A stretch of 64,000 nucleotides of DNA from an uncultured Chloroflexia bacterium (lineage in GTDB: Bacteria > Chloroflexota > Limnocylindria > Limnocylindrales > CSP1-4). The notes under the pieces were generated by a model, which had not been told where the DNA came from, did no database searches, and was given only the letters and a program-made list of their open reading frames with translations. Each line of letters opens with the position of its first letter. The stretch's first letter is position 1. Made by a program: the position numbers and the translations under genes. The stretch is from assembly GCA_963777975.1 (NCBI GenBank), contig CAVZSO010000010.1:118847-182846 (forward strand). The letters run 5' to 3'. Positions 11,456 through 24,483 of this stretch are shown here, in pieces.

Positions 11456-12574
11456 ATGGTCAACGAATCCAAGGGCTTTACCGGCATCCAGATGATCGAC
11501 GCGGGGGCAGCCGATGCGGTCCCGGCGACGAAGCCGGTGAGCGCCTTTCCGACCATCGCGCAGGTCGCCGAGCCCAGCCTCCAGCCGGCCGAGCCGGCGG
11601 CGGTCGAGGCAGGTGAGTTCGGCGGCGGCGTCAGCAAGGTCGTCATCGTCGGCTCCGGCCCCGCCGGCCTGACGGCGGCCATCTACGCGGCGCGCGCCAA
11701 CCTCGAGCCGCTGGTCATCGCCGGCCTCGTGCCCGGCGGTCAGCTGATGATCACCAGCGACGTCGAGAACTACCCAGGCTTCCCGGACGGCATCCAGGGA
11801 CCCGAGCTGATGGACCTCTTTCGGAAACAGGCCGCGCGCTTCGGGACGCGCTTCGTCGACAAGGACCTGGAGCGGGTCGACTTCAGCCAGCGGCCCTTCA
11901 GACTCTGGGCCGGCGGCATCGAGCACCGCGCCGAATCCGTCATCGTCGCCACCGGGGCGTCGGCCATCTGGCTGGGCCTGGAGAGCGAGACGCGGCTGCG
12001 CGGTCGGGGCGTCAGCGCCTGCGCGACCTGTGACGGCTTCTTCTTCCGCGACAAGCACGTCGGCGTCGTCGGAGGCGGCGACTCCGCGCTCGAAGAGGCG
12101 ACCTTCCTGACCAAGTTCGCCAGGCGGGTCACGATGATCCATCGCCGCGATGAGTTTCGTGGCTCCAAGATCATGCGCGACCGCGCACTCAACGACCCCA
12201 AGATCGACGTCCGCTGGAACAGCGAGGTCGCCGAGGTCATCGGCGACGACGTGGTCAGCGGCCTGCGCCTGCGCGACACCGCGACCGGCCAGGAGCACGA
12301 GGAGCCGATGGACGGGCTCTTCGTCGCCATCGGGCATCAGCCCAATACCGACGTCTTCCGCGACTGGCTCGAGGTCGACCCGAAGGGCTACCTCGTCGTG
12401 CACGACCAGACCGGCACCAAGGTCGAGGGGGTCTTCGTCGCCGGCGACGTCCACGATCATCGCTACCGGCAGGCCGTCACCGCCGCGGGAGACGGCTGTC
12501 GGGCGGCCATCGATGCCGAGCGCTGGCTCGAATCGGTCGGCCTGGCCGAGGCGGCGACCTCGACCGCCTGGTGA
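11456..12574 (+). CDS. trxB: thioredoxin-disulfide reductase with ~55-aa N-terminal extension
   Basis: VIVGSGPAGLTAAIYAARANLEP, CATCDGFFFRDK (redox-active CxxC), GGGDSALEEATFL, HRRDEFR. Alternative ATG at 11492. Confidence 0.8.
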   Translation: MVNESKGFTGIQMIDAGAADAVPATKPVSAFPTIAQVAEPSLQPAEPAAVEAGEFGGGVSKVVIVGSGPAGLTAAIYAARANLEPLVIAGLVPGGQLMITSDVENYPGFPDGIQGPELMDLFRKQAARFGTRFVDKDLERVDFSQRPFRLWAGGIEHRAESVIVATGASAIWLGLESETRLRGRGVSACATCDGFFFRDKHVGVVGGGDSALEEATFLTKFARRVTMIHRRDEFRGSKIMRDRALNDPKIDVRWNSEVAEVIGDDVVSGLRLRDTATGQEHEEPMDGLFVAIGHQPNTDVFRDWLEVDPKGYLVVHDQTGTKVEGVFVAGDVHDHRYRQAVTAAGDGCRAAIDAERWLESVGLAEAATSTAW

Positions 12575-14725
12575 CGGCGCCCTCGATCGGCGCCCTGCCG
12601 AGCCCGCGCCAGGTCATCTTCCGGGTCGAGGCGCTGGCCGACCCACGCATCCGACTCTTCCTGACCAGCGCGACGCTGCTCTTCGTCGAGCTGCTGCTCA
12701 TCCGCTGGATCCCGGCCAACGTCCGTTACGTCGGCTTCTTCAGCAACTTCCTGCTGATGGCCAGCTTCCTGGGCATCGGCCTCGGCATCCTCCTGGGGCG
12801 GAAGGGCTGGCGGCTGCCGTTCTCGCCGTTCACCCTGCTCCTCTTCGTCGTCGTGGCCCTCGTCGTCACGGCCGAGCTCAACGTCCAGATCAACTCCCAG
12901 GACGAGCTCTTCTTCGGCCTCGCCGAGAACACCGCCGCGGACGCCAACTTCATCGTCCTGCCCCTCGTCGTCGGCCTGGTGGCGGCCGTCATGGCGTCAC
13001 TCGCGTTGCCACTCGGGCCGCTCTTCCGGGCGATGCCGCCCCTGCGACGCCTACGCCATCGACATCGTCGGCTCGATGGTCGGCATCATCGGCTTCACGG
13101 CACTCTCGGCGGCCGGCACGAACCCGGTCGTCTGGTTCAGCGTGCTCGCCGTCCTCGTCCTGCTGATCGCGCTGGGCGGGGGCATCACGCCCTGGTCGTT
13201 CGTGGCCGGCGCGGCCGATGCTGGGCGTCATCTACGCCGTCGTCATCCAGGCCGGCAGCGGGGACATCTGGTCGCCCTACTATCGGATCACGACCTACCC
13301 GCTCGCGGATGGCACGCTGAACGTCAACGTCAACGGCATCCCGCACCAGGCCCTCCATCCGGTCGATCGAGCCGAAGGAACCGTTCTACGACCAGGTCTA
13401 CGAGTGGTTCCCGGGTCGCACGTACGACGACGTGCTCATCGTCGGCGCCGGCAGCGGCTCGGACGTGGCCATCGCGCTCGATCGCGGCGCCAAGCACGTG
13501 GATGCGGTCGAGATCGACCCCGCCATCCAGCGCATCGGCGTCGAGCATCACCCCGATCACCCCTACGACGACCCGCGGGTGACGCGGATCGTCAACGACG
13601 GCCGGGCGTTCCTGCGCGACGACGGACAAGCAGTACGACCTGGTCGTCTTCGCGCTGCCCGACTCGCTGACCCTGGTCAGCACCGCAGCCAACATCCGGC
13701 TGGAGTCGTTCCTGTTCACCGAGGAGGCCTTCGCGAGCGTGCGCGACCACCTCAAGCCAGGCGGCATCTTCGTGCTCTACAACTACTACCGCGAGCCATG
13801 GCTGGTGGCCAAGCTGCAGGGGATGCTGACGGACGCCTTCGGCTCGCCTCCGCTCGTGCGCACCTATTCCAACGTCCAGGCGGCCCTCGCCGCGGGACCG
13901 GGCGTGGCGGCTGTCGGCGGCGTGCCACCGGGCGACGGCGTCAGCGAGGTGCCCGACCCGGGCCAGCCGGAGCCCCGGCCGGCGACCGATGACTGGCCGT
14001 TCCTGTACCTGCGCACGGGCTTCATCGCGCCCTACTACCTCGTCGCCCTGGCCATCATCCTCGGCTTCGCGCTGGTCGCGGTGCTCGGGGCGGCGCGCGT
14101 GACGGGGACCCCCATCCGACGCTTCAGCCCGCACTTCTTCGTCCTCGGCACGGCCTTCCTGCTGCTCGAGACCCGCAGCCTGGTCAGCTTCAGCCTGCTC
14201 TTCGGCACGACCTGGATCGTCAACGCGCTGGCCTTCTTCGCCATCCTGGCCAGCGTCCTGGTGGCCATCCTCATCAACGCCCGCTTCCCCATCCGCCACC
14301 CGAACGTCTTCTACATCGGGCTCTTCGTGGCCCTCGGGGTCGCCTTCCTGCTGCCGCCCGAGCAGCTGCTCATCGACCCGCCCTGGCTGCGCTACGTCGT
14401 GGCCGCCGCGCTCGCCTTCACGCCCGTCTTCTTCGCCAACCTCGTCTTCAGCCACTCGTTCCGCGACACGACCACGGCCGACATGGCCTTCGCCAGCAAC
14501 CTGCTGGGGGCGATGGTCGGCGGCGCCCTGGAGTACCTGGCGCTGCTGACCGGCTACCGCGCCCTGCTGCCGCTGGTCGCCGTCCTGTACCTGCTGGCCT
14601 GGCTCTTCGCCACCCGCTGGCGTCGCCTGGCCGACCGCGACCTGGAGGCGGGCACGGCCGACCAGGCCGGCATCGACCACGCCGGCACGACCGAGCCGGG
14701 CACCGTGCTGGAGGGGGCGACCTGA
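12571..14725 (+). pseudogene. spermidine-synthase-like membrane protein (N-terminal polytopic domain + SpeE methyltransferase-fold + C-terminal TM domain) broken by four +1 frameshifts
   Basis: Five successive ORFs (12571, 13076, 13218, 13432, 13739) each step +1 in frame. Concatenated they read ...LGPLFRAMPP|CDAYAIDIVGSMVGIIGF...FVAGAA|MLGVIYAVVIQAGSGDIW...HPVD|IEPKEPFYDQVYEWFPGRTYDDVLIVGAGSGSDVAIALDRGAKHVDAVEIDP...AFLRD|TDKQYDLVVFALPDS...VLYNYYREPW... Junctions are near 13041, 13217, 13366 and 13625. Confidence 0.65.
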
Positions 14726-16860
14726 TGGGCTTCGGGCCGCGAGGCGGCGGGCGAAGCGCGGCCTACAGCGCGGGCGACGATCCCGCCGCGCGGGTGCCGA
14801 AAGAGCGGCGCGGCGCGACCATGCGCCGCATCGCGGCTTTCTTCCGACCCTACCGCTGGCAGGTGCTGGTCGTCCTTGGCGCCATCCTGCTGACGAGCAT
14901 GCTGGGGCTGATCAATCCGCTCCTGCTCAAGGCGCTCATCGACAGCGCCATCCCGTCGGGCAGTTGGCCGCAGCTCAACCTCTTCGTGGCGCTGATGATC
15001 ATCGTGCCCATCGTCAGCGGCCTGATCGGCGTCGGTCAGTCGTACTGGAACAACGTCGTCGGGCAGCATGTCATGCAGGACCTGCGCAACGCGCTCTACG
15101 CACATCTCCAGAAGATGCCGCTGCGCTTCTTCGCCGAGACGCGCACCGGGGAGATCCAGAGCCGCCTGGCCAACGATGTCGGTGGCGTCCAGAGCGTGGT
15201 CACGGACACGGCCAGCTCCGTCGTCAGCAACATGGTCATCGCGGTGACGACGATCATCGTCATGCTCTTCATCTCCTGGCAGCTGACGCTGTTGTCGCTG
15301 ATCGTGCTGCCATTCTTCATGTGGCTGACCTACCGCGTGGGCAAGATCCGGCGGAGCATCAGCACCGAGACGCAGGAGACGATGGCGGACGTGAGCGCCA
15401 TCACCCAGGAGACGCTCAGCGTGAGCGGCATCCTGCTCTCCAAGACCTTCGGTCAGCAGACCGCCTCGGTCGAGCGTTTCCGGCTCGCCAACGCCAAGCT
15501 GGCCGCGCTGCAGATCCGCCAGAGCATGGTCGGACGCTGGTTCTTCATGATCGTGGGCACCATCTTCAGCATCATGCCGGCCTTCGTGTACTGGCTGGCC
15601 GGCGCGCTCATCTTCGCCGGCGTCTCGAACGCGCCGACGATCGGCGACATCGTGGCCTTCACGACGCTCCAGAGCCGCCTCTTCTTCCCTCTCGGCCAGC
15701 TGCTCAACGTCCATGTCGAGGTCCAGGGCGCGCTGGCGCTCTTCGACCGCATCTTCGCCTACCTCGACCTGGAGCCCGAGATCAAGGACGCGGCCGACGC
15801 CCTCGAGCTCGACCCGTCGAGCGTCCGCGGCGACGTACGCTATCGAGGCGTCAGCTTCCGATATCGGACGACCGCACCGGCGGCCATCCAGCCCGAGGCC
15901 GAGGCGGCAGACCAGACCATGGAGGCCGACGAGGACGTCGAGGAGGCGGTGGCAGCGGCAGAAGCCGGCGCCGGTGCCGCCGTCGAGGCCGAGGCGGAGT
16001 CGGCACGAGCGACCGGGGTGGCCCTGGCGGTCGCGCTCGAGGACCCGATCTCGCCCGAAGACGAGGCCGCCGCCGCCGACGTCGAGCCCATCGCGCCCTT
16101 CGGCATCGAAGGCGTCGATTTCGAGGCCCGTGCAGGACAGCTGGTGGCGCTGGTCGGCCCATCGGGGGCGGGCAAGACGACGACGACCTACTTGCTGCCG
16201 CGCCTCTATGAGGTCGACGCCGGCGCCATCGAGCTTGACGGGCACGACATCCGGACGCTGACGCTCGAGTCGCTCGGCCGGGTCATCGGCTTCGTGACCC
16301 AGGAGACATACCTCTTCCACGCTTCGGTCCGCGACAACCTCCTCTATGCCCGGCCCGATGCCAGCCAGGCCGAGCTGGAGGCCGCCGGGCGGGCGGCAGC
16401 CATCCACGATCGGATCATGGAGTTGCCCGAGGGCTACGACACCATCGTCGGCGAGCGCGGTTACAAGCTCTCCGGCGGGGAGAAACAGCGCGTCGCTATC
16501 GCTCGGGTGCTGCTCAAGGATCCACGGGTGCTCATCCTCGACGAGGCGACGTCGGCACTCGACACCGTCAGCGAGCGCCTCATCCAGGCGGCTCTCGAGC
16601 GGGCCGAAGCCGGACGCACGACCCTGGCCATCGCCCACCGGCTGTCGACCATCCTGCGCGCCGACCTGATCCTGGTCTTCGAAGGCGGCCACATCGTCGA
16701 GCGCGGCACGCACCACGAGCTGCTCGGCCTGGACGGCCTCTATGCACGGCTGTATCACGAGCAATTCCTGACCGCGGCGGCGGTCGCAGCCGAGGCTGAT
16801 CCGGCTGGCGAGGCGCCCGATATCGGACGCCAGGCGTCGCTGCCTCTCGGACAAGGTTGA
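14725..16860 (+). CDS. ABC exporter, fused permease/ATP-binding (MsbA/ABCB type) with acidic low-complexity insertion in the NBD
   Basis: 6-TM exporter domain then Walker A GPSGAGKTT, signature LSGGEKQR, Walker B LILDEAT. The likely true start is ATG 14821 (MRRIAAFFRPYRW). A ~75-aa Ala/Glu/Asp-rich insert lies between VSFRY and GIEGVDFEA. Confidence 0.8.
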   Translation: MGFGPRGGGRSAAYSAGDDPAARVPKERRGATMRRIAAFFRPYRWQVLVVLGAILLTSMLGLINPLLLKALIDSAIPSGSWPQLNLFVALMIIVPIVSGLIGVGQSYWNNVVGQHVMQDLRNALYAHLQKMPLRFFAETRTGEIQSRLANDVGGVQSVVTDTASSVVSNMVIAVTTIIVMLFISWQLTLLSLIVLPFFMWLTYRVGKIRRSISTETQETMADVSAITQETLSVSGILLSKTFGQQTASVERFRLANAKLAALQIRQSMVGRWFFMIVGTIFSIMPAFVYWLAGALIFAGVSNAPTIGDIVAFTTLQSRLFFPLGQLLNVHVEVQGALALFDRIFAYLDLEPEIKDAADALELDPSSVRGDVRYRGVSFRYRTTAPAAIQPEAEAADQTMEADEDVEEAVAAAEAGAGAAVEAEAESARATGVALAVALEDPISPEDEAAAADVEPIAPFGIEGVDFEARAGQLVALVGPSGAGKTTTTYLLPRLYEVDAGAIELDGHDIRTLTLESLGRVIGFVTQETYLFHASVRDNLLYARPDASQAELEAAGRAAAIHDRIMELPEGYDTIVGERGYKLSGGEKQRVAIARVLLKDPRVLILDEATSALDTVSERLIQAALERAEAGRTTLAIAHRLSTILRADLILVFEGGHIVERGTHHELLGLDGLYARLYHEQFLTAAAVAAEADPAGEAPDIGRQASLPLGQG

Positions 16861-16923
16861 CGATCCTTTACCAGCCCATGGCAGTCCCTGAACCGACCTG
16901 ACCTACGATCCGCCGCGGTCGAC

Positions 16924-18117
16924 GTGATCCATGATCCCGATGAGGAGGTAGCCACGGTGCCGCGACCAGCTTCCCTGCTGCGATCCCTTGGCCTGGCCGT
17001 CCTGGCGGTCGCGCTGCCGGTCGGCCTCGCAGCCCAGGCAGCCGATGCCGTGACGGTGACCACCCCGTACCCGGCTGTCGTCGCCGATCCGGGCGGCACC
17101 GCACGATTCCCGCTGACGATCGACGCCAGAAGCGCGGGCACGGTGGCCCTCGAGGCCACCGGCGTGCCGACCGGCTGGACGGCGAGCTTCCGTGGCGGTG
17201 GCTCGATCGTCTCGGCGGTCTACGTCACGGGCGGCAAGGCGTCATCGGTCGATCTGGAGGTCAAGGTCCCTTCAGATGCCGCCCCGGGCAGCCATCGCAT
17301 CGGCGTCCGAGCCAACGACGGCAGCGGAGGCAGCGGCAACCTGGCGGTCGAGATCCGTGTCTCCGACGCATCCGCCGGCGGAGTCAAGCTCGAAGCCACC
17401 TATCCCACGCTCAAGGGTCCCGCCAGCGCGACCTACCGATTCGATCTGACGCTCAGCAACGACACCAGCCAGCAGCAGACCTTCACCCTGCAGGCCTCGG
17501 GACCGACCGGCTGGACGGTCGACGCGCGGCCATCGAGCTCGAACCAGGCAGCCACGGCCGTCGTCGACGCCGGCAGTTCGACACAGATCCAGGTGACGGC
17601 CCAGCCCCCGGTCGACGCGACGGCGGGCTCCTATCCCATCGCCGTGGAGGCCGTCGGCGGACCGACCGTCGCCCATGCCGACCTCGCCGTCGAGATCGTG
17701 GGCAGCTACACGATGAACGTGACCACGCCGGACGGCCGCCTCAACGCGGATGTCACCGCCGGCACGGCATCGCCGATGACCGTCGAGGTCCATAACACCG
17801 GTTCCGCGCCCCTGGCCGGCGTGGCCATGAGCGCGACGCCGCCGCAGGGCTGGAAGGTGACCTTCGATCCAGCTGTCATCGAGGCCATCGCGGCGGGGGA
17901 CTCGGCGACGGTGACAGCGTCGATCACAGCCGCCGACAGCGCCATCGCCGGCGACTACGTCCTGACGGTGGCTGCCAAGAGCGATCAGGCGAGCGGCTCC
18001 ATGGATGTCCGGACCACCGTCCAGACCTCACCCATCTGGGGATTCGTGGGCCTGGCCGCGATCGGCCTGGTGTTCGTGATCCTCTTCCTGGTCTTCCAGC
18101 GGTTCGGCCGCCGCTAG
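16924..18117 (+). CDS. secreted and C-terminally anchored NEW3-like repeat-domain protein (COG1470-like), partner of the downstream ABC-2 transporter
   Basis: Signal peptide [25 protein letters not shown]. Repeated ~90-aa beta-sandwich-like modules ([25 protein letters not shown]) with the [20 protein letters not shown] pattern. C-terminal [23 protein letters not shown] plus basic tail. Confidence 0.55.
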
Positions 18118-18140
18118 CCCAGCCCTCGGAGGTCGCTCGA

Positions 18141-19149
18141 ATGGATACCAGGGGCGCGGCGACGCCAGCCGACTCGGGTCCGGGATCGGTCGCCATCCGG
18201 ACCCAGGATCTGACCAAGTCATATGGCGAGGTGACGGCCGTCGACGGCCTCGACCTCGAGGTCCGCTTCGGCGAGGTGTTCGGTCTCCTGGGCCCCAACG
18301 GAGCGGGCAAGACGACGACCATCCTGATGCTCCTGGGATTGACCGAGCGCGACGAGGGCACGGCCGAGGTCCTGGGCCTCGACCCTGCCCGCCACCCGCT
18401 CGAGGTCAAGCGCCGCGTCGGCTACCTGCCGGACGACGTCGGCTTCTACTCGGGCATGACCGGCCGCGAGAACCTGCGCTACACCGCGCGACTCAATCGG
18501 ATGTCGTCGGCGTCGACCGAGCAGCGCATCGATGCGCTTGCTCGAGCGAGTCGGGCTGGTCGAGGCGGCGGACCGGGCGGTCGAGACCTACTCGCGCGGT
18601 ATGCGACAGCGACTCGGCCTCGCGGACGTCCTGCTGCCCGAGCCTCGCATCGCGATCCTCGACGAGCCGACGGCCGCCATCGACCCGGTCGGTGCCAACG
18701 AGCTGCTCGGGCTCATCCGCAACCTGGCCGACGAGGAGGGTGTGGCGGTCCTGCTCTCGAGCCACCTCCTCCTTCAGGTCGAGCGCGTCTGCAGCCGGGT
18801 CGGCATCTTCGTGCGCGGCCGCATGGTCGAGCAGGGCACGGTCGCCGAGCTGGCCGGGCGGATGCCGACCGAGCAGATCCGGATCGAGGTCGGCTGTGAC
18901 GGCGACCCGGCGGCAACACGTCGGGCGCTGTCGGAGATGGACGGCCTCCACGTCCTCGAGCAGGACCGCGCTGATCCGCGCATCTGGGTCGTCGCCAGCG
19001 ACGGCGATCGCCGGCGTGAGCTTGCCGCCGGGCTGTCCGATCGCGGCCTCGCCATCTTCCACCTTCGCAGCACCGGCGTCGGCCTCGAGGAGGTCTATCG
19101 GCGCTACTTCCATCAGGCCGAGGAGGACGCCGATGACTCCGCAGCCTGA
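18141..19149 (+). pseudogene. ABC transporter ATP-binding protein (ABC-2/CcmA type) with an apparent +1 frameshift near 18537
   Basis: Frame 0: [41 protein letters not shown]...STEQRIDA. Frame +1 continues [29 protein letters not shown]...[10 protein letters not shown]. The junction gcgCttgctc carries one extra base. Confidence 0.7.
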
Positions 19150-20197
19150 GCCGATCGTGGCGCCGCTGGCGCCAGCGGCGCCACCCGAGACCACCGAGGT
19201 CCAGCAGCGGGACGCCGGCGCCGACGAGCGTCGTTTCAGCGGCGGCTGGCGGATCATCGCCCGGAAGGAGCTCGCCGACCACCTCCATAGCCTTCGGTTC
19301 CTGCTCCTGACGCTCGGCCTTGGCCTGGCGGCGGTCGCCTCCGTCGTCGCGACCAGTGGCGGGATCCGCGATGTCGCTCCCCTGGCCAGCGGATCGCCGG
19401 CCGTCTTCCTGAAGCTCTTCACGATCGGCTCGTCGAACCTGCCGCCCCTGGTGACCTGGATCGCCTTCCTGGGTCCGTTGCTCGGGATCGCGTTCGGCTT
19501 CGACGCCATCAACAACGAACGTGCCGAGCGGACGCTGCCTCGCCTGCTGTCGCAGCCCATCTGGCGCGACGACGTCATCAATGGCAAGTTCGCCGGCGCG
19601 CTGGCAGCCATCGCGCTCATCCTGGCCGCCATCGTCATCGTCATCGCCGGCGTGGGCATCGTGCGTCTGGGCGTCGTGCCCAAGCCCGAGGACATCCTGC
19701 GCCTGGCCGTCTGGTACATCGTCGCCATCGTCTACGTCGGCTTCTGGCTGGCGCTGGCGACGCTCTTCTCGGTCGTTCTTCGGCGCGCCGCGGCATCGGC
19801 CCTGGCGGCACTCTCGGTCTGGCTCATCGCCTCGGCCTTCGCGACGGTCCTGGTCGGCGTCATCGCCGATGCGCTGGCGCCGATCCCAGCGAGCCCCACC
19901 TTCGATGAACAGCTCGCCAACGCGACGATGCACCAGGATCTGGCGCGGCTCTTTCCCGGCGAGATCTTCACGGAGAGCACCCGGGCCATCCTCGACCCGG
20001 GTGTCCAGGCCATCGGGGTCGGCGACCAGGTCCAGCTGGCGATCTCGAACCAGGCGGGCGAGGCCATCCCGTCCGTCCTCTCGTTCGGCCAGAGCCTCCT
20101 CGTCGTCTCGCCGCTGGTCGTCGTCCTCGTCGCCCTGACGGTCACATGCTTCGCGCTCGCCTACGTGGCCTTCATGCGCCAGGAGGTCCGCGCCTGA
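19133..20197 (+). CDS. ABC-2 family transporter permease
   Basis: 354 aa, six hydrophobic segments; ATG overlaps the ATPase stop. Glycine-rich ABC-2 permease-like loops. Confidence 0.65.
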   Translation: MTPQPEPIVAPLAPAAPPETTEVQQRDAGADERRFSGGWRIIARKELADHLHSLRFLLLTLGLGLAAVASVVATSGGIRDVAPLASGSPAVFLKLFTIGSSNLPPLVTWIAFLGPLLGIAFGFDAINNERAERTLPRLLSQPIWRDDVINGKFAGALAAIALILAAIVIVIAGVGIVRLGVVPKPEDILRLAVWYIVAIVYVGFWLALATLFSVVLRRAAASALAALSVWLIASAFATVLVGVIADALAPIPASPTFDEQLANATMHQDLARLFPGEIFTESTRAILDPGVQAIGVGDQVQLAISNQAGEAIPSVLSFGQSLLVVSPLVVVLVALTVTCFALAYVAFMRQEVRA

Positions 20198-20235
20198 GAT
20201 CGGCGCGCCCGAGTCCCGCGCCTATACTCGGGCGC

Positions 20236-20709
20236 ATGGTGAGCACGGCGCAGTCCCCTCTGCCGTCCCCGGCGGCGACCGGTTGGGACGGCGTTCGCGA
20301 CGCCCTCCATGCGCGCGGCCTGCGCTGGACCCCGCAGCGGCGCACGCTCATCGAGGTGCTCTCGCGGACCGACGGACATGTCACCGGCGCTGAGCTCGTG
20401 GAGCGCTGCCGGGAGCTCGACCCGACGACCATCCCCTCGACCGTCTACCGGACGCTCGACGTGCTCGAGGACCTGGGGCTCGTCAGGCACAACCATGGCG
20501 CCGACGGCCGCGAGGAGTTCCATGTCCAGCCGCTGGCCGACCACGGGCACCTCCACTGTCGCAACTGCGGCGGCCGCTGGGAGATCGACGCCGTCGAGGC
20601 GGCGACCCTGGTCGAGGCGCTGCGAACGGGGCGCGGCTTCGCGGTCGACCTCTCGCATCTGACGGTCACCGGCCGCTGCGCGGCCTGCCTCGCGGCCGAC
20701 CAGGACTGA
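20236..20709 (+). CDS. Fur family transcriptional regulator (PerR/FurA-like candidate)
   Basis: WTPQRRTLIEVLSRTDGHVTGAELVERC (winged helix), HGHLHCRNCGG...CAAC (two CxxC pairs forming the structural Zn site). Upstream of osmC. Confidence 0.7.
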   Translation: MVSTAQSPLPSPAATGWDGVRDALHARGLRWTPQRRTLIEVLSRTDGHVTGAELVERCRELDPTTIPSTVYRTLDVLEDLGLVRHNHGADGREEFHVQPLADHGHLHCRNCGGRWEIDAVEAATLVEALRTGRGFAVDLSHLTVTGRCAACLAADQD

Positions 20710-20724
20710 CGGCCCGAGCACCCG

Positions 20725-21222
20725 ATGGCCGACAAGTCCGTCCGCGTCGAGTGGCGGGGTGACCTGAGCTTCGAGGCGACGAGCGGCCTCGGGGGCACGG
20801 CCCGGCTGGCCATGGACGATGACGTCGCCGGCCTCCGCCCGAGCGAGGGCGTGCTGGTCGCGCTGGGCGCCTGCGCCGGCGCCGACGTCGTCTCGATCCT
20901 GCGCAAGAAGCGCCAGCCGATGAGCGCCTACCACGTCGAGGTCCGTGGCGATCAACGGGCCGAGCATCCGCGCTCGTTCGTGCGCATCGACGTGCTCCAC
21001 GAGATCGCCGGCGAGTGGGTCGACGCCGAGGCCGTGCGCCGCTCCATCGAGCTCTCGGTCACGCGCTACTGCGCGGTCACCGCACAGCTCGCGTCGGGCG
21101 ATGTGACCATCAGCCACCGCTACCGCCTCGGCGACGCCGAGCCCGTTACGGTCGCCGAGACGGGTCCGCATGGCCACCTCGTGGTCTTCGCCGAGCAGCA
21201 AGCCGGAGAGGTTCGGGGGTAG
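20725..21222 (+). CDS. OsmC/Ohr family peroxiredoxin
   Basis: 165 aa; ALGACAGADVVSILRKKRQ and VTRYCAVTAQL carry the two conserved OsmC cysteines. Confidence 0.7.
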   Translation: MADKSVRVEWRGDLSFEATSGLGGTARLAMDDDVAGLRPSEGVLVALGACAGADVVSILRKKRQPMSAYHVEVRGDQRAEHPRSFVRIDVLHEIAGEWVDAEAVRRSIELSVTRYCAVTAQLASGDVTISHRYRLGDAEPVTVAETGPHGHLVVFAEQQAGEVRG

Positions 21223-21237
21223 ACGACGCCGTTCGAC

Positions 21238-21275
21238 CGTGCATGATTATTCATGGCGATGTATGCTCATGCACC
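21238..21275. promoter_or_regulatory. AT-rich imperfect 34-bp palindrome TGCATGATTATTCATGG|CGATGTATGCTCATGCA (13/17 arm matches) spanning the argC start codon; candidate tandem ARG boxes (ArgR operator)
   Basis: Seen directly. It is the only AT-rich stretch in the osmC-argC spacer. TGCAT/ATGCA half-sites resemble actinobacterial ARG boxes. Confidence 0.45.
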
Positions 21276-22428
21276 CATGACGATCGCCGGATCCGACCCC
21301 ATCAGCCGATCCGCACCGACCGCGAGCAGGACGCGCGATGGGACGGTCGATTCGCGTCTGCGAGTCGCCATCCTCGGGGCCACGGGCTACGTCGGCGCGG
21401 AGCTCGTCCGCATCCTGGAGCGGCATCCCGGCGTCCGGATCGTCGCGCTCGCGGCCCGCAACCGGGATGGCCTGCCGGTCGGCGATGCGTTCGCCCATCT
21501 CGCCGAGACCGGCCACCGCATCGACGCCGAGCTGCCCGACGCGAGCTCCCTCGACGCGGTCTTCCTGGCCCTCCCCCACGGCCAGTCGGCGGCCGTGGTG
21601 CCGGCCCTGCTCGAGCAGGGACCGTTGGTCGTCGATCTCGGCTCCGACTTCCGATTGAGCGACCCGGCCGACTACCCGACCTGGTACGGCTTCGAGCATC
21701 CGACCCCGGCCCTGCTGCCAGGCGGCGCGGGGCTGGCGGCGACCGGCGATCGTGACGCCATCCCGGCGGCCGTCTACGGTCTGCCGGAGCTCCATCGCTC
21801 CGAGCTCGCTGGCGCGCGCCTGATCGCTTCACCGGGCTGCTATCCGACCGCCACCCTGCTCGCGCTCGCGCCCCTGGCCCGCGCCGGGCTGATCGGCGAC
21901 GTCGTCGTCGATGCCAAGAGCGGCGTCAGCGGCGCCGGACGCGAGCCCAAGCTCGAGACCCACTTCAGCGAGGTCGACGAGTCGCTGCGCGCCTACGGGA
22001 TCGGCGGTCATCGGCATTTCGCCGAGATCCACCAGGAGCTGGCATCGTTGGGCGTGGAGCCCGCTGCCCTGGCGTCGCTCGTCTTCACGCCGCACCTCGT
22101 GCCCATGACGCGTGGGCTGCTGGCGACGTGCTACGTGCGCACCACGCGTCCGACCGCCCAGTCCACGATCGATGCGCTCTACGACGCGGCATACGGCGAC
22201 GAGCCCTGCGTGGCGATAACGGCGTCACCGCCGGCGACGAAGACGACGACCGGCGCCAACGTCGCTCGCGTCTTCGTCGACCTCGACGAGCGGAGCGGCC
22301 GGATCATCGCGATGGGCGCCATCGACAACCTGGTCAAGGGTGCCGCCGGCCAGGCTGTCCAGGCGTTCAACGTGGCCACCGGCCAGCCCGAGACGGCCGG
22401 CCTCGAGCAGCTGCCCATCTACCCATGA
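21253..22428 (+). CDS. argC: N-acetyl-gamma-glutamyl-phosphate reductase
   Basis: RVAILGATGYVGAELVRIL, SPGCYPTATLLALAPL, AKSGVSGAGR, AIDNLVKGAAGQAVQAFN. N-terminal extension means the start may be internal. Confidence 0.85.
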   Translation: MAMYAHAPMTIAGSDPISRSAPTASRTRDGTVDSRLRVAILGATGYVGAELVRILERHPGVRIVALAARNRDGLPVGDAFAHLAETGHRIDAELPDASSLDAVFLALPHGQSAAVVPALLEQGPLVVDLGSDFRLSDPADYPTWYGFEHPTPALLPGGAGLAATGDRDAIPAAVYGLPELHRSELAGARLIASPGCYPTATLLALAPLARAGLIGDVVVDAKSGVSGAGREPKLETHFSEVDESLRAYGIGGHRHFAEIHQELASLGVEPAALASLVFTPHLVPMTRGLLATCYVRTTRPTAQSTIDALYDAAYGDEPCVAITASPPATKTTTGANVARVFVDLDERSGRIIAMGAIDNLVKGAAGQAVQAFNVATGQPETAGLEQLPIYP

Positions 22429-22438
22429 CCGGGTCGTC

Positions 22439-23698
22439 GTGAGCGCACCGAGGGTCGAGGAGCGGGCGGAGCTGCCGGTCGGCTTCCGGGCCGGCGGCCT
22501 GAGCGCGGGCATCAAGGCCAGCGGCCGGCCGGACCTCGGGGTCGTCATGGTGGCCGGTCCGGAACCGGCCAGCGCCGCGGCGGTCTTCACGGCCAACCTG
22601 GTCCAGGCGGCGCCGGTCCGGATGAGCCGGCGCCACCTCGAGCAGACCACCGGACGGGTGCGCGCCCTGATCGTCACCAGCGGCTGTGCCAATGCGGCTA
22701 CGGGACCTGCCGGCGACGATGATCAAGCGGCCATCGCCGAGGCGCTGGCGACCACCTTCGGCATCGAGGCGGTGGAGACGGTAGCGGCCTCGACCGGGCT
22801 CATCGGCACGCGCCTGCCGGTCGACCGCGTGCGTGATGGGCTGACGTTGCTGGCGGCCGAGGGGCTGCGCACGGATGCCGGCGGCTGGGAGGCGTTCGGG
22901 ACCGCGATCATGACCACCGACTCGCGGCGCAAGGCGGCGACGACGACCATCGCCCTGCCGACCGACGACCTCTCGCTCCGCCTGGTGCGCGTCTCCGGGG
23001 TCGCCAAGGGCGTGGGCATGATCCATCCCCGGATGGCGACCATGATCGCCGTCGTCCTGACCGACGCGGCGGCCAGTCCGGAGCTGCTGGCGACGCTCTT
23101 GCGCGAGGCGTCCGCGGCGACATTCGAGCAGACGAGCATCGATGGCGACACCTCGACCAACGACACCGTCTTCGTGCTCGCGTCGGGCGCCTCGGATGCG
23201 GAGTCGCCGCGACCCGGCAGCCCCGAGGCCGCGCAGCTCGGTGCGGCGCTGACCGCGGTCTGCCGATCGCTGGCCCGGCAGCAGGCGGCCGACGGCGAGG
23301 GAGCCACGACGCTCATCACCTGTCTCGTGACCGGTGCCGCCGACGTGACCGACGCGCGCGCGGTGTCGCGGGCGGTCGTGCGCAGCAACCTGCTCAAGGC
23401 CGCCGTCCATGGCCGCGACCCGAACTGGGGTCGCGTCGCGGCGGCGGCCGGTGCCGCGCTCCGTCCGGATGGCTCGGCGGTCGACCTCGACCCCGCGACG
23501 TTGACCATCGGGCTGGCCGGCTCGGCCGTCTTCTCCGGCCTGCCGCTGCCCTTCGACGCGGCCGCCGTCTCGGCGGCCATGGACGCGCCGGAGCTGGTCA
23601 TCGAGGTCGACCTGGCGCGGGGCACCGCCAGCGCGGAGGCCTTCGGATGCGACCTGACCGAGGCCTACGTCCTCGAGAACAGCGCGTACTCGACATGA
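22439..23698 (+). CDS. argJ: bifunctional glutamate N-acetyltransferase / amino-acid acetyltransferase
   Basis: GTG start just after the argC stop. GFRAGGLSAGIK, ATMIAVVLTDAA, TLITCLVTGA and the self-cleavage region ATML-like TDAAAS. Confidence 0.85.
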   Translation: MSAPRVEERAELPVGFRAGGLSAGIKASGRPDLGVVMVAGPEPASAAAVFTANLVQAAPVRMSRRHLEQTTGRVRALIVTSGCANAATGPAGDDDQAAIAEALATTFGIEAVETVAASTGLIGTRLPVDRVRDGLTLLAAEGLRTDAGGWEAFGTAIMTTDSRRKAATTTIALPTDDLSLRLVRVSGVAKGVGMIHPRMATMIAVVLTDAAASPELLATLLREASAATFEQTSIDGDTSTNDTVFVLASGASDAESPRPGSPEAAQLGAALTAVCRSLARQQAADGEGATTLITCLVTGAADVTDARAVSRAVVRSNLLKAAVHGRDPNWGRVAAAAGAALRPDGSAVDLDPATLTIGLAGSAVFSGLPLPFDAAAVSAAMDAPELVIEVDLARGTASAEAFGCDLTEAYVLENSAYST

Positions 23699-24483
23699 GC
23701 ACGATGGTCGTCGTCAAGCTCGGCGGCACGACCGTGGCCGGACAGGAGGCGGTCCTCTCGGAGATCGCCGCCACCGCCCGCCAGCGGCCGGTGGTCGTGG
23801 TCCATGGCGGCGGCGTCCAGGTCACCGAGTGGCTGACACGGATGGGCGTGCCGACCCGTTTCGAGGATGGCCTGCGCATCACCGACGAGGCGGCCATCGA
23901 GGTCGTCGCCGCGGTGTTGCGCGGCGCCATCAATACGGCGCTCGTGGCCGCCCTGCGCGCTCGCGGGGCCGATGCGGTCGGGTTGTCCGGGGTCGATGGC
24001 GGCCTGCTGGTCGCCGAACGGACGCCGGACAAGGGCCTGGTCGCGACCGTCGTCGACGTTCGCCGATCGCTCATCGACGCGCTGCTCGTCGACGGCCGGG
24101 TGCCGGTCGTGGCCCCGCTCGCACTCGATGAGATGGGCGTGGTGTGCAACGTCAACGCCGACGACGTGGCCGCCGGTCTGGCCCGCGGGCTTGGCGCGCA
24201 GCGCTTGGTCCTGCTGACGGACACGGACGGGGTGCTGGGCAGCGACGGCCAGCGCATCGCCACCCTCGGCGCGGCCGAGCTCGAGGCCCTCATCACCGAC
24301 GGCACCATCGGCCAGGGCATGGTGCCCAAGGTGCGATCCGCTGCTGGTGCCCTGGCCGGGGCCGGGCAGGTCGTCATCGCCGATGCAGCCTCGCCACACG
24401 CCCTGTCGCGCGCTCTCGCCGACGAGGACGTCGGCACGCGCATCGTGGCCACCACCGGGCCCGCCGCGACCGGAGCCCGCTGA
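23695..24483 (+). CDS. argB: acetylglutamate kinase
   Basis: MSTMVVVKLGG, VVVHGGG, VCNVNADDVAAGLA; ATGA overlap with argJ stop. Confidence 0.85.
   Translation: MSTMVVVKLGGTTVAGQEAVLSEIAATARQRPVVVVHGGGVQVTEWLTRMGVPTRFEDGLRITDEAAIEVVAAVLRGAINTALVAALRARGADAVGLSGVDGGLLVAERTPDKGLVATVVDVRRSLIDALLVDGRVPVVAPLALDEMGVVCNVNADDVAAGLARGLGAQRLVLLTDTDGVLGSDGQRIATLGAAELEALITDGTIGQGMVPKVRSAAGALAGAGQVVIADAASPHALSRALADEDVGTRIVATTGPAATGAR

Follow-up and report, generated by a model that had tools for sequence, protein, structure and literature searches.

A stretch of 64,000 nucleotides (nt) from an uncultured Chloroflexia bacterium (contig CAVZSO010000010.1; the whole stretch is referred to here as the window) carries three consecutive genes that encode a protein of NEW3 immunoglobulin (Ig)-like repeats with a single C-terminal transmembrane (TM) helix, an ATP-binding cassette (ABC) ATPase, and a NosY-like ABC-2 (type V) permease. 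These genes form a real module that occurs across bacteria and in some archaea, and the family is visible in databases yet undescribed, under the generic names given by the Prokaryotic Genome Annotation Pipeline (PGAP). We propose that the triad specifies a tripartite ABC machine resembling NosDFY, in which a bitopic Ig-repeat subunit replaces NosD, and which likely has a role in stress; we regard this proposal as about evenly poised between right and wrong. An earlier note on this DNA, made from the sequence alone, had named the triad together with an adjoining Fur-family/OsmC pair, and all of these genes are present on the plus strand.

The first gene of the triad has a longest open reading frame (ORF) extending from 16924 to 18117, which gives the 397 amino acids of the earlier note, but the likely start is the GTG at 16957, yielding 386 amino acids, because GAGGAGG lies 7 nt upstream of it and a database protein (P0001) is identical in both sequence and length. 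The repeats, secretion and C-terminal TM helix previously ascribed to this protein are borne out, the secretion by a signal peptide; the surface anchoring is not, as the protein sits in the cytoplasmic membrane as a type I protein and is neither wall- nor surface-anchored. The Pfam family PF10633 (NPCBM_assoc/NEW3) matches in three stretches (E 6e-29; 100.5 bits against a gathering cut-off of 24.4), and Pfam finds no enzyme or catalytic domain, glycosidase or NPCBM domain in the protein. Beyond its signal peptide the protein has only the three beta-sandwich domains and the TM helix, with no attached enzyme, and a reading of the repeats as a glycosidase accessory was rejected because there is no catalytic or NPCBM domain.

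The signal peptide has neither a lipobox cysteine nor a twin-arginine motif, and its region is unstructured in the AlphaFold2 (AF2) model. The mean predicted local distance difference test score (pLDDT) of that model is 87.8, with the three all-beta domains mostly above 88, and the TM helix spans residues 359-383, with a five-residue tail after it. A Foldseek comparison with the PDB returned generic tandem Ig, ASH or MG arrays only – those of ciliary central-pair proteins, integrin legs, alpha-2-macroglobulin and titin – and no functional lead. The layout of the protein was read from an alignment of 34 homologues (A1) together with this model. Domain 3 is the most conserved, with 15 near-invariant positions against nine in domain 1 and seven in domain 2, and retains the motifs TPDGRLN, NTGSAPL, PPxGW and AGDY; there is no His, Cys or Met among the approximately 40 near-invariant positions of the protein.

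Conservation is strongest at the C-terminus. All 66 full-length homologues from the loci, at 31-96% identity, end in [YF]GRR-stop, with the tail preceded by R-x-[TS]-[VI]-x-T-S-x-x-W-[GA]-x-x-G and then the helix; so do all 120 matches in a word search, and 133 of 150 cluster representatives at 50% identity end in [YFLV]GRR. The [YF]GRR end is also kept in homologues from Bacteroides finegoldii, Chondrinema, Rhizobium and the archaeon Methanomethylovorans hollandica, the last at 24.9% identity. As judged from the sequences, no other part of the accessory protein is as constrained as its TM helix and tail. A profile search of 1.84 billion representatives found 821 clusters (50% identity) at E<=1e-30, the representatives of which are mostly 380-410 amino acids long and aligned through the last residue, with a few longer ones that have extra repeats. 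The length of the stalk thus varies, since longer members add Ig-like repeats; five proteins of 668-857 amino acids (P0323, P0347, P0348, P0378 and P0388) have additional Ig-like repeats towards the N-terminus and the same C-terminal helix and tail. The window protein has each of the traits of the proposed family: a signal peptide, at least two NEW3 domains, a TM helix, a [YF]GRR end, and adjacent ABC_tran and ABC2_membrane_2 genes.

The permease is well matched to its Pfam family (109.9 bits against a gathering score of 27.2, over profile positions 2-282 of 283), and its sole sequence match in the PDB is NosY, at E 0.0017. Its AF2 model (pLDDT 79; predicted template modelling score, pTM, 0.77) has the helix pattern of the type V fold, with an amphipathic helix at the N-terminus, six helices in the membrane and, in the TM5-TM6 connection, extracytoplasmic ones. 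The top 11 Foldseek matches are all NosY (TM-score 0.70-0.77, 21-25% identity), followed by ABCG5/8, ABCG25, ABCG2, TarG, PmtD and KpsM. Like its partner, the permease has fixed termini: an N-terminal cytoplasmic KE-x-x-D motif is invariant, and the C-terminus has the form R-Q-E-[VI]-R-A, with QE[VI]RA present in 120 of 120 homologues. The motifs persist as KE-x-x-D-[HN] and R-[QRK]-[ED]-I in the Bacteroides and archaeal permeases. No NCBIfam model scores above its cut-off for either the NEW3 protein or the permease.

The ATPase gene lies directly downstream of the NEW3 gene, as the earlier note stated; it is not one intact ORF in the window, a single extra base having passed unnoticed. The ABC_tran profile matches over positions 2-85 in frame 0 (18141 to approximately 18537) and over positions 88-137 in frame +1 (18532-19149). 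The Walker A, signature and Walker B (ILDEP) motifs are present, and the frame is intact in L005, a contig of a metagenome-assembled genome (MAG) whose three triad proteins are 92-96% identical to those of the window. Alignment of the two places the extra base among the codons GAT GCG CTT G CTC GAG of the window, against GAC GCA CTC CTG GAG in L005, and its deletion restores a normal ATPase of 335 amino acids reading ...RIDALLERVGL... through this point. The repaired protein matches the NCBIfam drrA model TIGR01188 at 1.4e-68 but below its cut-off (231.4 against 312.45 bits), has NosF as its best prokaryotic match (3e-52), and aligns with Rv1218c over residues 16-328 (2.5e-45).

The linkage of the three genes is close to absolute. 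A genome scan with one genome per species and a 9-sequence alignment as the query returned 69 loci, in which the triad was identified by tblastn. Among the approximately 65 loci whose downstream DNA is long enough, a single one (L036, with a downstream flank of only approximately 950 nt) does not keep the order and strand of the NEW3, ATPase and permease genes. The percent identities of the three proteins co-vary over 63 loci (Spearman 0.74 and 0.79), and a search that began from the permease recovered the triad in both of two cases. Such triads were thus rightly described as conserved, and the neighbourhood linkage to the ABC-2 genes held in annotated plasmids and, rearranged, in an archaeon. 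An exact-match look-up with the window's own protein returned no contig. The nearest loci are in MAGs labelled uncultured Chloroflexia, Candidatus Limnocylindria or Candidatus Limnocylindrales, and the scan loci include other Chloroflexota and many Alphaproteobacteria (Mesorhizobium, Aquamicrobium, Nitratireductor, Falsochrobactrum, Devosia and Beijerinckiaceae). Tables of called genes add an Acidimicrobiia MAG, a contig labelled Candidatus Binatia and further Chloroflexota, and plasmid records with the triad come from Sinorhizobium, Neorhizobium, Rhizobium, Bacteroides finegoldii (Bacteroidota) and Chondrinema. The module of the window has a core chromosomal setting, in contrast to the plasmid-borne rhizobial copies.

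Several loci depart from the common three-gene form. On the Methanomethylovorans hollandica plasmid pMETHO01 (L083, 2594-7045) the order is two permease genes, a small ORF of 102 amino acids, the NEW3-like gene and, last, the ATPase gene; the two ABC2_membrane_2 permeases are different from one another, which suggests a heterodimer, and the KFGRR end of the NEW3-like protein is kept. A Chloroflexota contig (L077, 8183-10252) has the ATPase and permease in one ORF of 689 amino acids, either a true fusion or an assembly artefact. In one Chloroflexota lineage a protein of approximately 122 amino acids with no Pfam match is encoded directly downstream of the permease (L078 10390-10755, L079 7034-7402, L080 6121-6489 and L009 9578-9913), where it is a possible fourth component.

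No gene outside the triad is a universal neighbour in the flanks of the loci, and those that recur point to envelope or proteotoxic stress. On rhizobial plasmids the gene order is one or two Hsp20 genes, groES, groEL, DegQ, NEW3, ATPase, permease, DUF982, CbpM, a DnaJ-C protein and an SPW-repeat protein, and a groES-groEL-degP-triad arrangement is also present in chromosomal loci of the Phyllobacteriaceae type. GroESL genes adjoin the triad in other orientations in three Chloroflexota (L017, L024 and L025) and in a Beijerinckiaceae locus (L068), DegP follows the permease in an Anaerolineae locus (L047), and Hsp20 lies near the triad in L032 and L074. Regulatory genes flank it in two further cases – a sigma/anti-sigma pair of the extracytoplasmic function (ECF) type and a two-component system in the Acidimicrobiia MAG (L002), and a two-component system in Bacteroides finegoldii (L085) – and cation/proton antiporter genes lie beside it in three unrelated lineages, Chloroflexota (L078), Rhizobium pAt (L082) and Chondrinema (L084). 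The plasmid and related alphaproteobacterial arrangements have the appearance of a mobile heat-shock island (L088 1-10600, L086 1-9550, L081, L087, L045, L051 and L059-L064), adjoined in L086 by Tn7-like TniQ, TniB and Mu-transposase genes; a literature search found nothing relevant on this gene set.

In the arrangement that we propose, the core would be a dimer of the NosY-like permease with a dimer of the DrrA/NosF-like ATPase, and the Ig-repeat protein would be a dedicated third subunit, exported by the Sec pathway and held in the cytoplasmic membrane by its C-terminal helix. This helix is envisaged as docking on the permease, and with it the juxtamembrane motif (R-T-V-x-T-S-x-x-W-G) and the cytoplasmic tail of five residues that ends in [YF]GRR; domain 3 would rest on the outer loops of the permease, and domains 2 and 1 would point outward. 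ATP binding and hydrolysis in the cytoplasm would shift the permease, and either the Ig array or a hydrophobic ligand given to it would receive the movement. The driving of NosD by NosFY, and the action of LptB2FG with the bitopic LptC, would be parallels by analogy. The sequences and models show the parts, with their families and folds, the linkage, the fixed termini and the recurring neighbours; the complex itself, its docking, the mechanotransmission and the stress role are inferred. The earlier note suggested an export or surface-remodelling system; the likeness to NosDFY, the closest solved relative, speaks no less for mechanotransmission to a partner outside the cytoplasm than for export in the classical sense. 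The most likely role is in tolerance of envelope or proteotoxic stress (heat, oxidants, ions) and not in nutrient uptake or glycan breakdown. A bolder account, which we think improbable as it stands, is that the triad provides ATP-powered extracytoplasmic protein quality control or stress protection, in which a NosFY-like motor applies force to a PapD/ASH-like Ig stalk that holds or unfolds damaged envelope proteins, or hands them on, for example to DegP/DegQ. It would explain why the triad travels with Hsp20, GroESL, DegQ and CbpA/CbpM on rhizobial plasmid islands and lies beside groESL, Hsp20 or DegP in several Chloroflexota, and if true it would mean that energy is supplied to a compartment without ATP.

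Several observations weigh against a NosDFY-like stress machine. NosD is unrelated to Ig domains, which makes the analogy an architectural one only; the contacts between the subunits are ones that we infer; and the inter-domain geometry of the NEW3 model is uncertain (pTM 0.51). The ATPase is frameshifted in this window. Stress genes are neighbours in a minority of the loci, the large alphaproteobacterial group may count as a single mobile island, and most Chloroflexota loci have ordinary synteny only (DUF3090, peptidase M17 and aminotransferase genes). A simple alphaproteobacterial consensus for RpoH-type promoters has no match in the S. fredii island (L088).

Other explanations place the Ig-repeat protein or the pump in a different role. 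The NEW3 protein could be a cargo or client of the ABC-2 pair, with its C-terminal module as a sorting signal and its Ig array released, processed or displayed in the manner of an S-layer protein or adhesin: surface proteins often carry NEW3 and CARDB domains, variants with more Ig repeats (505-857 amino acids) occur, the TS-x-x-WG motif, hydrophobic helix and RR end are laid out like the signals for sortases, exosortases and archaeosortases, and NCBIfam gives a weak match to a putative S-layer protein of the PACE-CTERM kind (24 bits, where the cut-off is 110). We think this unlikely, since the Sec signal peptide suffices to take the protein across the membrane without an ABC exporter, genes for sortase-like enzymes or proteases show no consistent linkage, and the one-to-one gene pairing and narrow length range resemble those of a subunit; moreover, sorting tails are usually loosely basic, whereas here [YF]GRR is fixed, and so are the permease termini that match it. 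The triad could instead be a DrrAB- or LanFEG-type ABC-2 pump of the conventional sort, for efflux of, or immunity to, a drug, lantibiotic or antimicrobial peptide, with the Ig protein as a LanI-like immunity or sequestering partner. This would accord with DrrA being the best NCBIfam subfamily for the ATPase, with a match to the lantibiotic-protection ATPase family (9e-47; this, too, is below the curated cut-off), with the full-length match to the multidrug efflux ATPase Rv1218c that includes the C-terminal domain, and with the two-component systems beside the triad in Bacteroides finegoldii and the Acidimicrobiia MAG, as in BceRS-BceAB or LanRK-LanFEG. To this we also assign a small probability, because the permease is closest in sequence and fold to NosY and not to DrrB or LanE/G-type proteins, no biosynthetic cluster is near the triad in the examined loci, the recurrent neighbours are chaperones and proteases and not antibiotic genes, and the family has members among free-living soil Chloroflexota, rhizobia and gut Bacteroides and in a methanogen. 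Ion or metal handling – as a NatAB-like Na+ extrusion pump, or in NosDFY-like metal delivery, controlled here by the adjacent Fur-family regulator – draws on the antiporter genes that adjoin the triad in L082, L084 and L078, on the Fur-family gene after the permease in the window, and on NosFY as the nearest solved relative. It is very unlikely, given near-invariant NEW3 positions devoid of His, Cys and Met, a Fur/OsmC adjacency that is limited to the closest relatives, the absence of a NosD-type beta-helix protein, and flanks in which nosZ and nosL were not noticed among the annotated genes, no targeted search having been made for them.

A further explanation concerns this genome alone, in which the module could be a decaying pseudogene cluster with no current function. 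The 1-nt insertion splits the ATPase, and an upstream gene (12571-14725), which encodes a large membrane protein that is spermidine-synthase-like by eye and whose last fragment is blank in Pfam, is also broken, being cut into approximately five frames by four single-base insertions (at 13045, 13217, 13367 and 13621) relative to L005. However, both the NEW3 gene and the permease gene are intact, with 96% and 92% identity to their L005 counterparts, and the insertion at 18540 is the sole uncompensated coding indel relative to L005 between 14.7 and 21.2 kb, where the remaining indels are in-frame or intergenic. The relatives are 'contig_N' metagenome assemblies, presumed to be long-read, and several genes of one of them (L001) are split likewise. 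The upstream gene is present in L005 as two tandem copies that both align to the single window copy, and the clustering of indels within it suggests a collapsed repeat. The broken upstream gene makes an assembly error the likelier source of the ATPase frameshift too, and the insertion at 18540 is probably such an error; if it is real, this copy is inactive. Decay of the cluster is thus a possibility that we hold to be rather unlikely.

Table 1. Positions of the triad, its parts and the adjoining features in the window.
Feature	Position	Strand	Basis and remarks
Shine-Dalgarno sequence GAGGAGG of NEW3 gene	16943..16949	+	Read from sequence; 7 nt 5' of GTG 16957
NEW3/Ig-repeat accessory protein, 386 amino acids, type I bitopic membrane protein	16957..18117	+	Pfam, AF2
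Sec-type signal peptide, residues 1-28, cleavage after AQA, AD next	16957..17040	+	Basic n-region, hydrophobic core, AXA site
Beta-sandwich domain 1, residues 32-135, conserved RGGG motif	17050..17361	+	All-beta in AF2; G80 and G82 invariant
Beta-sandwich domain 2, residues 143-247	17383..17697	+	AF2; conserved LKGPASATY and GPxGW motifs
Beta-sandwich domain 3, residues 253-356, membrane-proximal	17713..18024	+	AF2; best Pfam NEW3 stretch at residues 278-352
Juxtamembrane motif R-x-T-V-x-T-S-x-x-W-G-x-x-G, TM helix and tail FGRR-stop	18010..18114	+	Family hallmark
ABC ATPase, DrrA/NosF/CcmA type, C-terminal domain of ~95 amino acids, frame interrupted	18141..19149	+	ABC_tran split over two frames
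Single extra base G, ATPase frameshift	18540	+	Alignment with L005
ABC-2 (type V) permease, NosY-like, 354 amino acids, end ...RQEVRA	19133..20197	+	PF12679 (ABC2_membrane_2) 1.8e-31
Perfect 10-nt inverted repeat GCGCCCGAGT-N11-ACTCGGGCGC	20205..20235	+	Repeat search; between permease stop 20197 and probable Fur start 20236
Fur-family regulator	20236..20709	+	PF01475 at 3e-20; neighbour outside conserved module
OsmC-family protein	20725..21222	+	PF02566 at 5e-11; neighbour outside conserved module

The plus-strand gene order around the triad (Table 1), in DNA of approximately 70% GC, is ABCB-type exporter, NEW3, ABC ATPase, ABC-2 permease, Fur-family regulator, OsmC, argC, argJ and argB. Start/stop overlaps had been reported for the triad; the ATPase and permease genes do overlap, by 17 nt, and this is the sole overlapping junction of the two, as the NEW3 and ATPase genes are separated by a 23-nt gap with GGAGG preceding the ATPase ATG. 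The permease ATG at 19133 is also preceded by a Shine-Dalgarno sequence, GAGGAGG at 19120-19126. Spacing of this kind is compatible with co-transcription of the three genes, which is plausible. The Fur-family and OsmC genes follow immediately, as described; the pair is conserved in the closest relatives only, with both genes in L001, L005 and L006, Fur alone in L007 and OsmC alone in L008, and because of this confinement neither is part of the system, for which they had been considered as components and were rejected. NCBIfam models do not separate Fur, PerR and Zur for the product of the Fur-family gene. The inverted repeat between the permease and Fur-family genes is putative in function, and may mark a transcript boundary, as a T-less terminator hairpin, or serve as an operator. 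Upstream of the NEW3 gene the repeat search gave no inverted repeat or obvious operator, and the DNA there is conserved in close relatives only. A search of Rfam over 14000-22000 found no RNA family, a promoter and terminator scan was uninformative at 70% GC, and PADLOC returned generic ATPase matches only and made no defence-system assignment. The ABCB-type exporter gene (14725-16860) encodes fused transmembrane and nucleotide-binding domains with an Ala/Glu/Asp-rich low-complexity insert of approximately 90 amino acids between them; L005 retains it (96%), and only in close relatives is it found upstream of the triad. In the outer flanks, ORF translations and the Pfam tables of the related L001 indicate a thioredoxin-reductase-like gene with a CATC motif upstream (11456-12574) and, downstream, genes reading as argC, argJ and argB (21253-24483).

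The description of these triads as functionally uncharacterised is accurate: a literature search (NEW3, COG1470, PF10633/NPCBM_assoc) found no paper on a NEW3-ABC-2 triad, PGAP names are generic, and there is no NCBIfam model at cut-off. What is at hand is a large family with no functional name, present in the genetically tractable Sinorhizobium, Mesorhizobium and Bacteroides finegoldii, with experimental handles in the invariant [YF]GRR terminus, the matching permease termini and the recurrent placement in heat-shock clusters. If the stress link is true, a membrane-spanning ATP-driven component would be added to envelope stress tolerance. The window taken alone is of modest interest, being a typical member, probably from a Limnocylindria (Chloroflexota) MAG, with a broken ATPase frame.

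Few ABC-2 (type V) systems act through a partner outside the cytoplasm, and each of them has brought a distinct mechanism to light. Examples are NosDFY, the capsule system KpsMT-KpsE and the teichoic-acid transporter TarGH, with LptB2FGC as one from another fold class. NosDFY, which serves the maturation of nitrous oxide reductase, is a mechanotransducing ABC complex that loads copper by way of NosD, and its genes have the order accessory protein, ATPase, permease. This order of an extracytoplasmic accessory, ATPase and permease is shared by the triad, as are the Pfam family and fold of the permease and the close ATPase match to NosF (NosDFY structures 7O0Y, 7ZNQ and 7QBA). However, NosD is a soluble beta-helix protein, whereas the accessory protein here is bitopic, with three Ig-like domains, a TM helix of its own and the GRR tail; it has no NosD-type or beta-helix match in Pfam, and it is without conserved metal ligands. 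The permease is approximately 80 amino acids longer than NosY, with an N-terminal extension and a larger TM5-TM6 loop, and nosR, like nosZ and nosL, was not noticed among the annotated genes of the examined flanks, which were not searched for it specifically. LptC is a bitopic beta-jellyroll partner of an ABC extractor, with an intercalating N-terminal helix. It likewise presents a single-pass protein with an all-beta extracytoplasmic domain and a TM helix that meets the ABC transmembrane domains, and the analogy is one of concept only: LptF and LptG have the type VI fold, the helix of LptC is at the opposite end from that of the NEW3 protein, LptB is only a distant ATPase match (~1e-33), no Lpt genes are linked, and the module here extends to the Chloroflexota, probably monoderm bacteria, and to an archaeon.

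GldAFG, an ABC transporter associated with gliding motility, likewise combines an ABC-2 ATPase and permease with a large extracytoplasmic auxiliary membrane protein (GldG, the role of which is not known). The ATPase matches the GldA model at 1.1e-56 but far below its equivalog cut-off (192.6 against 402.6 bits), the permease matches the GldF model weakly (22.6 against 288.5 bits), and no GldG-type (ABC_transp_aux) protein is encoded at the triad. The ABC-2 efflux pumps DrrAB and Rv1217c-Rv1218c share with the triad the DrrA-type architecture of an ATPase with a C-terminal domain; the ATPase nonetheless does not reach the cut-off of the DrrA subfamily, NosY is the nearer relative of the permease, and an Ig-repeat partner is absent from those pumps. 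The NEW3/NPCBM-associated domains of glycoside hydrolases, and CARDB or S-layer Ig-like repeats, offer the same domain family, PF10633, three copies of which score above the gathering threshold here, but in place of a catalytic domain the triad protein has a family-specific TM helix, a GRR tail and obligatory ABC-2 neighbours. The signals for sortases, exosortases and archaeosortases have the same three-part layout of motif, TM helix and basic tail as the NEW3 C-terminus, although no cognate enzyme recurs in the flanks (the flanks only, not genome-wide) and the PACE-CTERM match is the only one related to CTERM signals. The triad belongs to a recognised class, that of ABC-2 transporters with an accessory subunit outside the cytoplasm; what is new is the Ig-repeat, GRR-tailed version of it, of which the window copy is an ordinary member.

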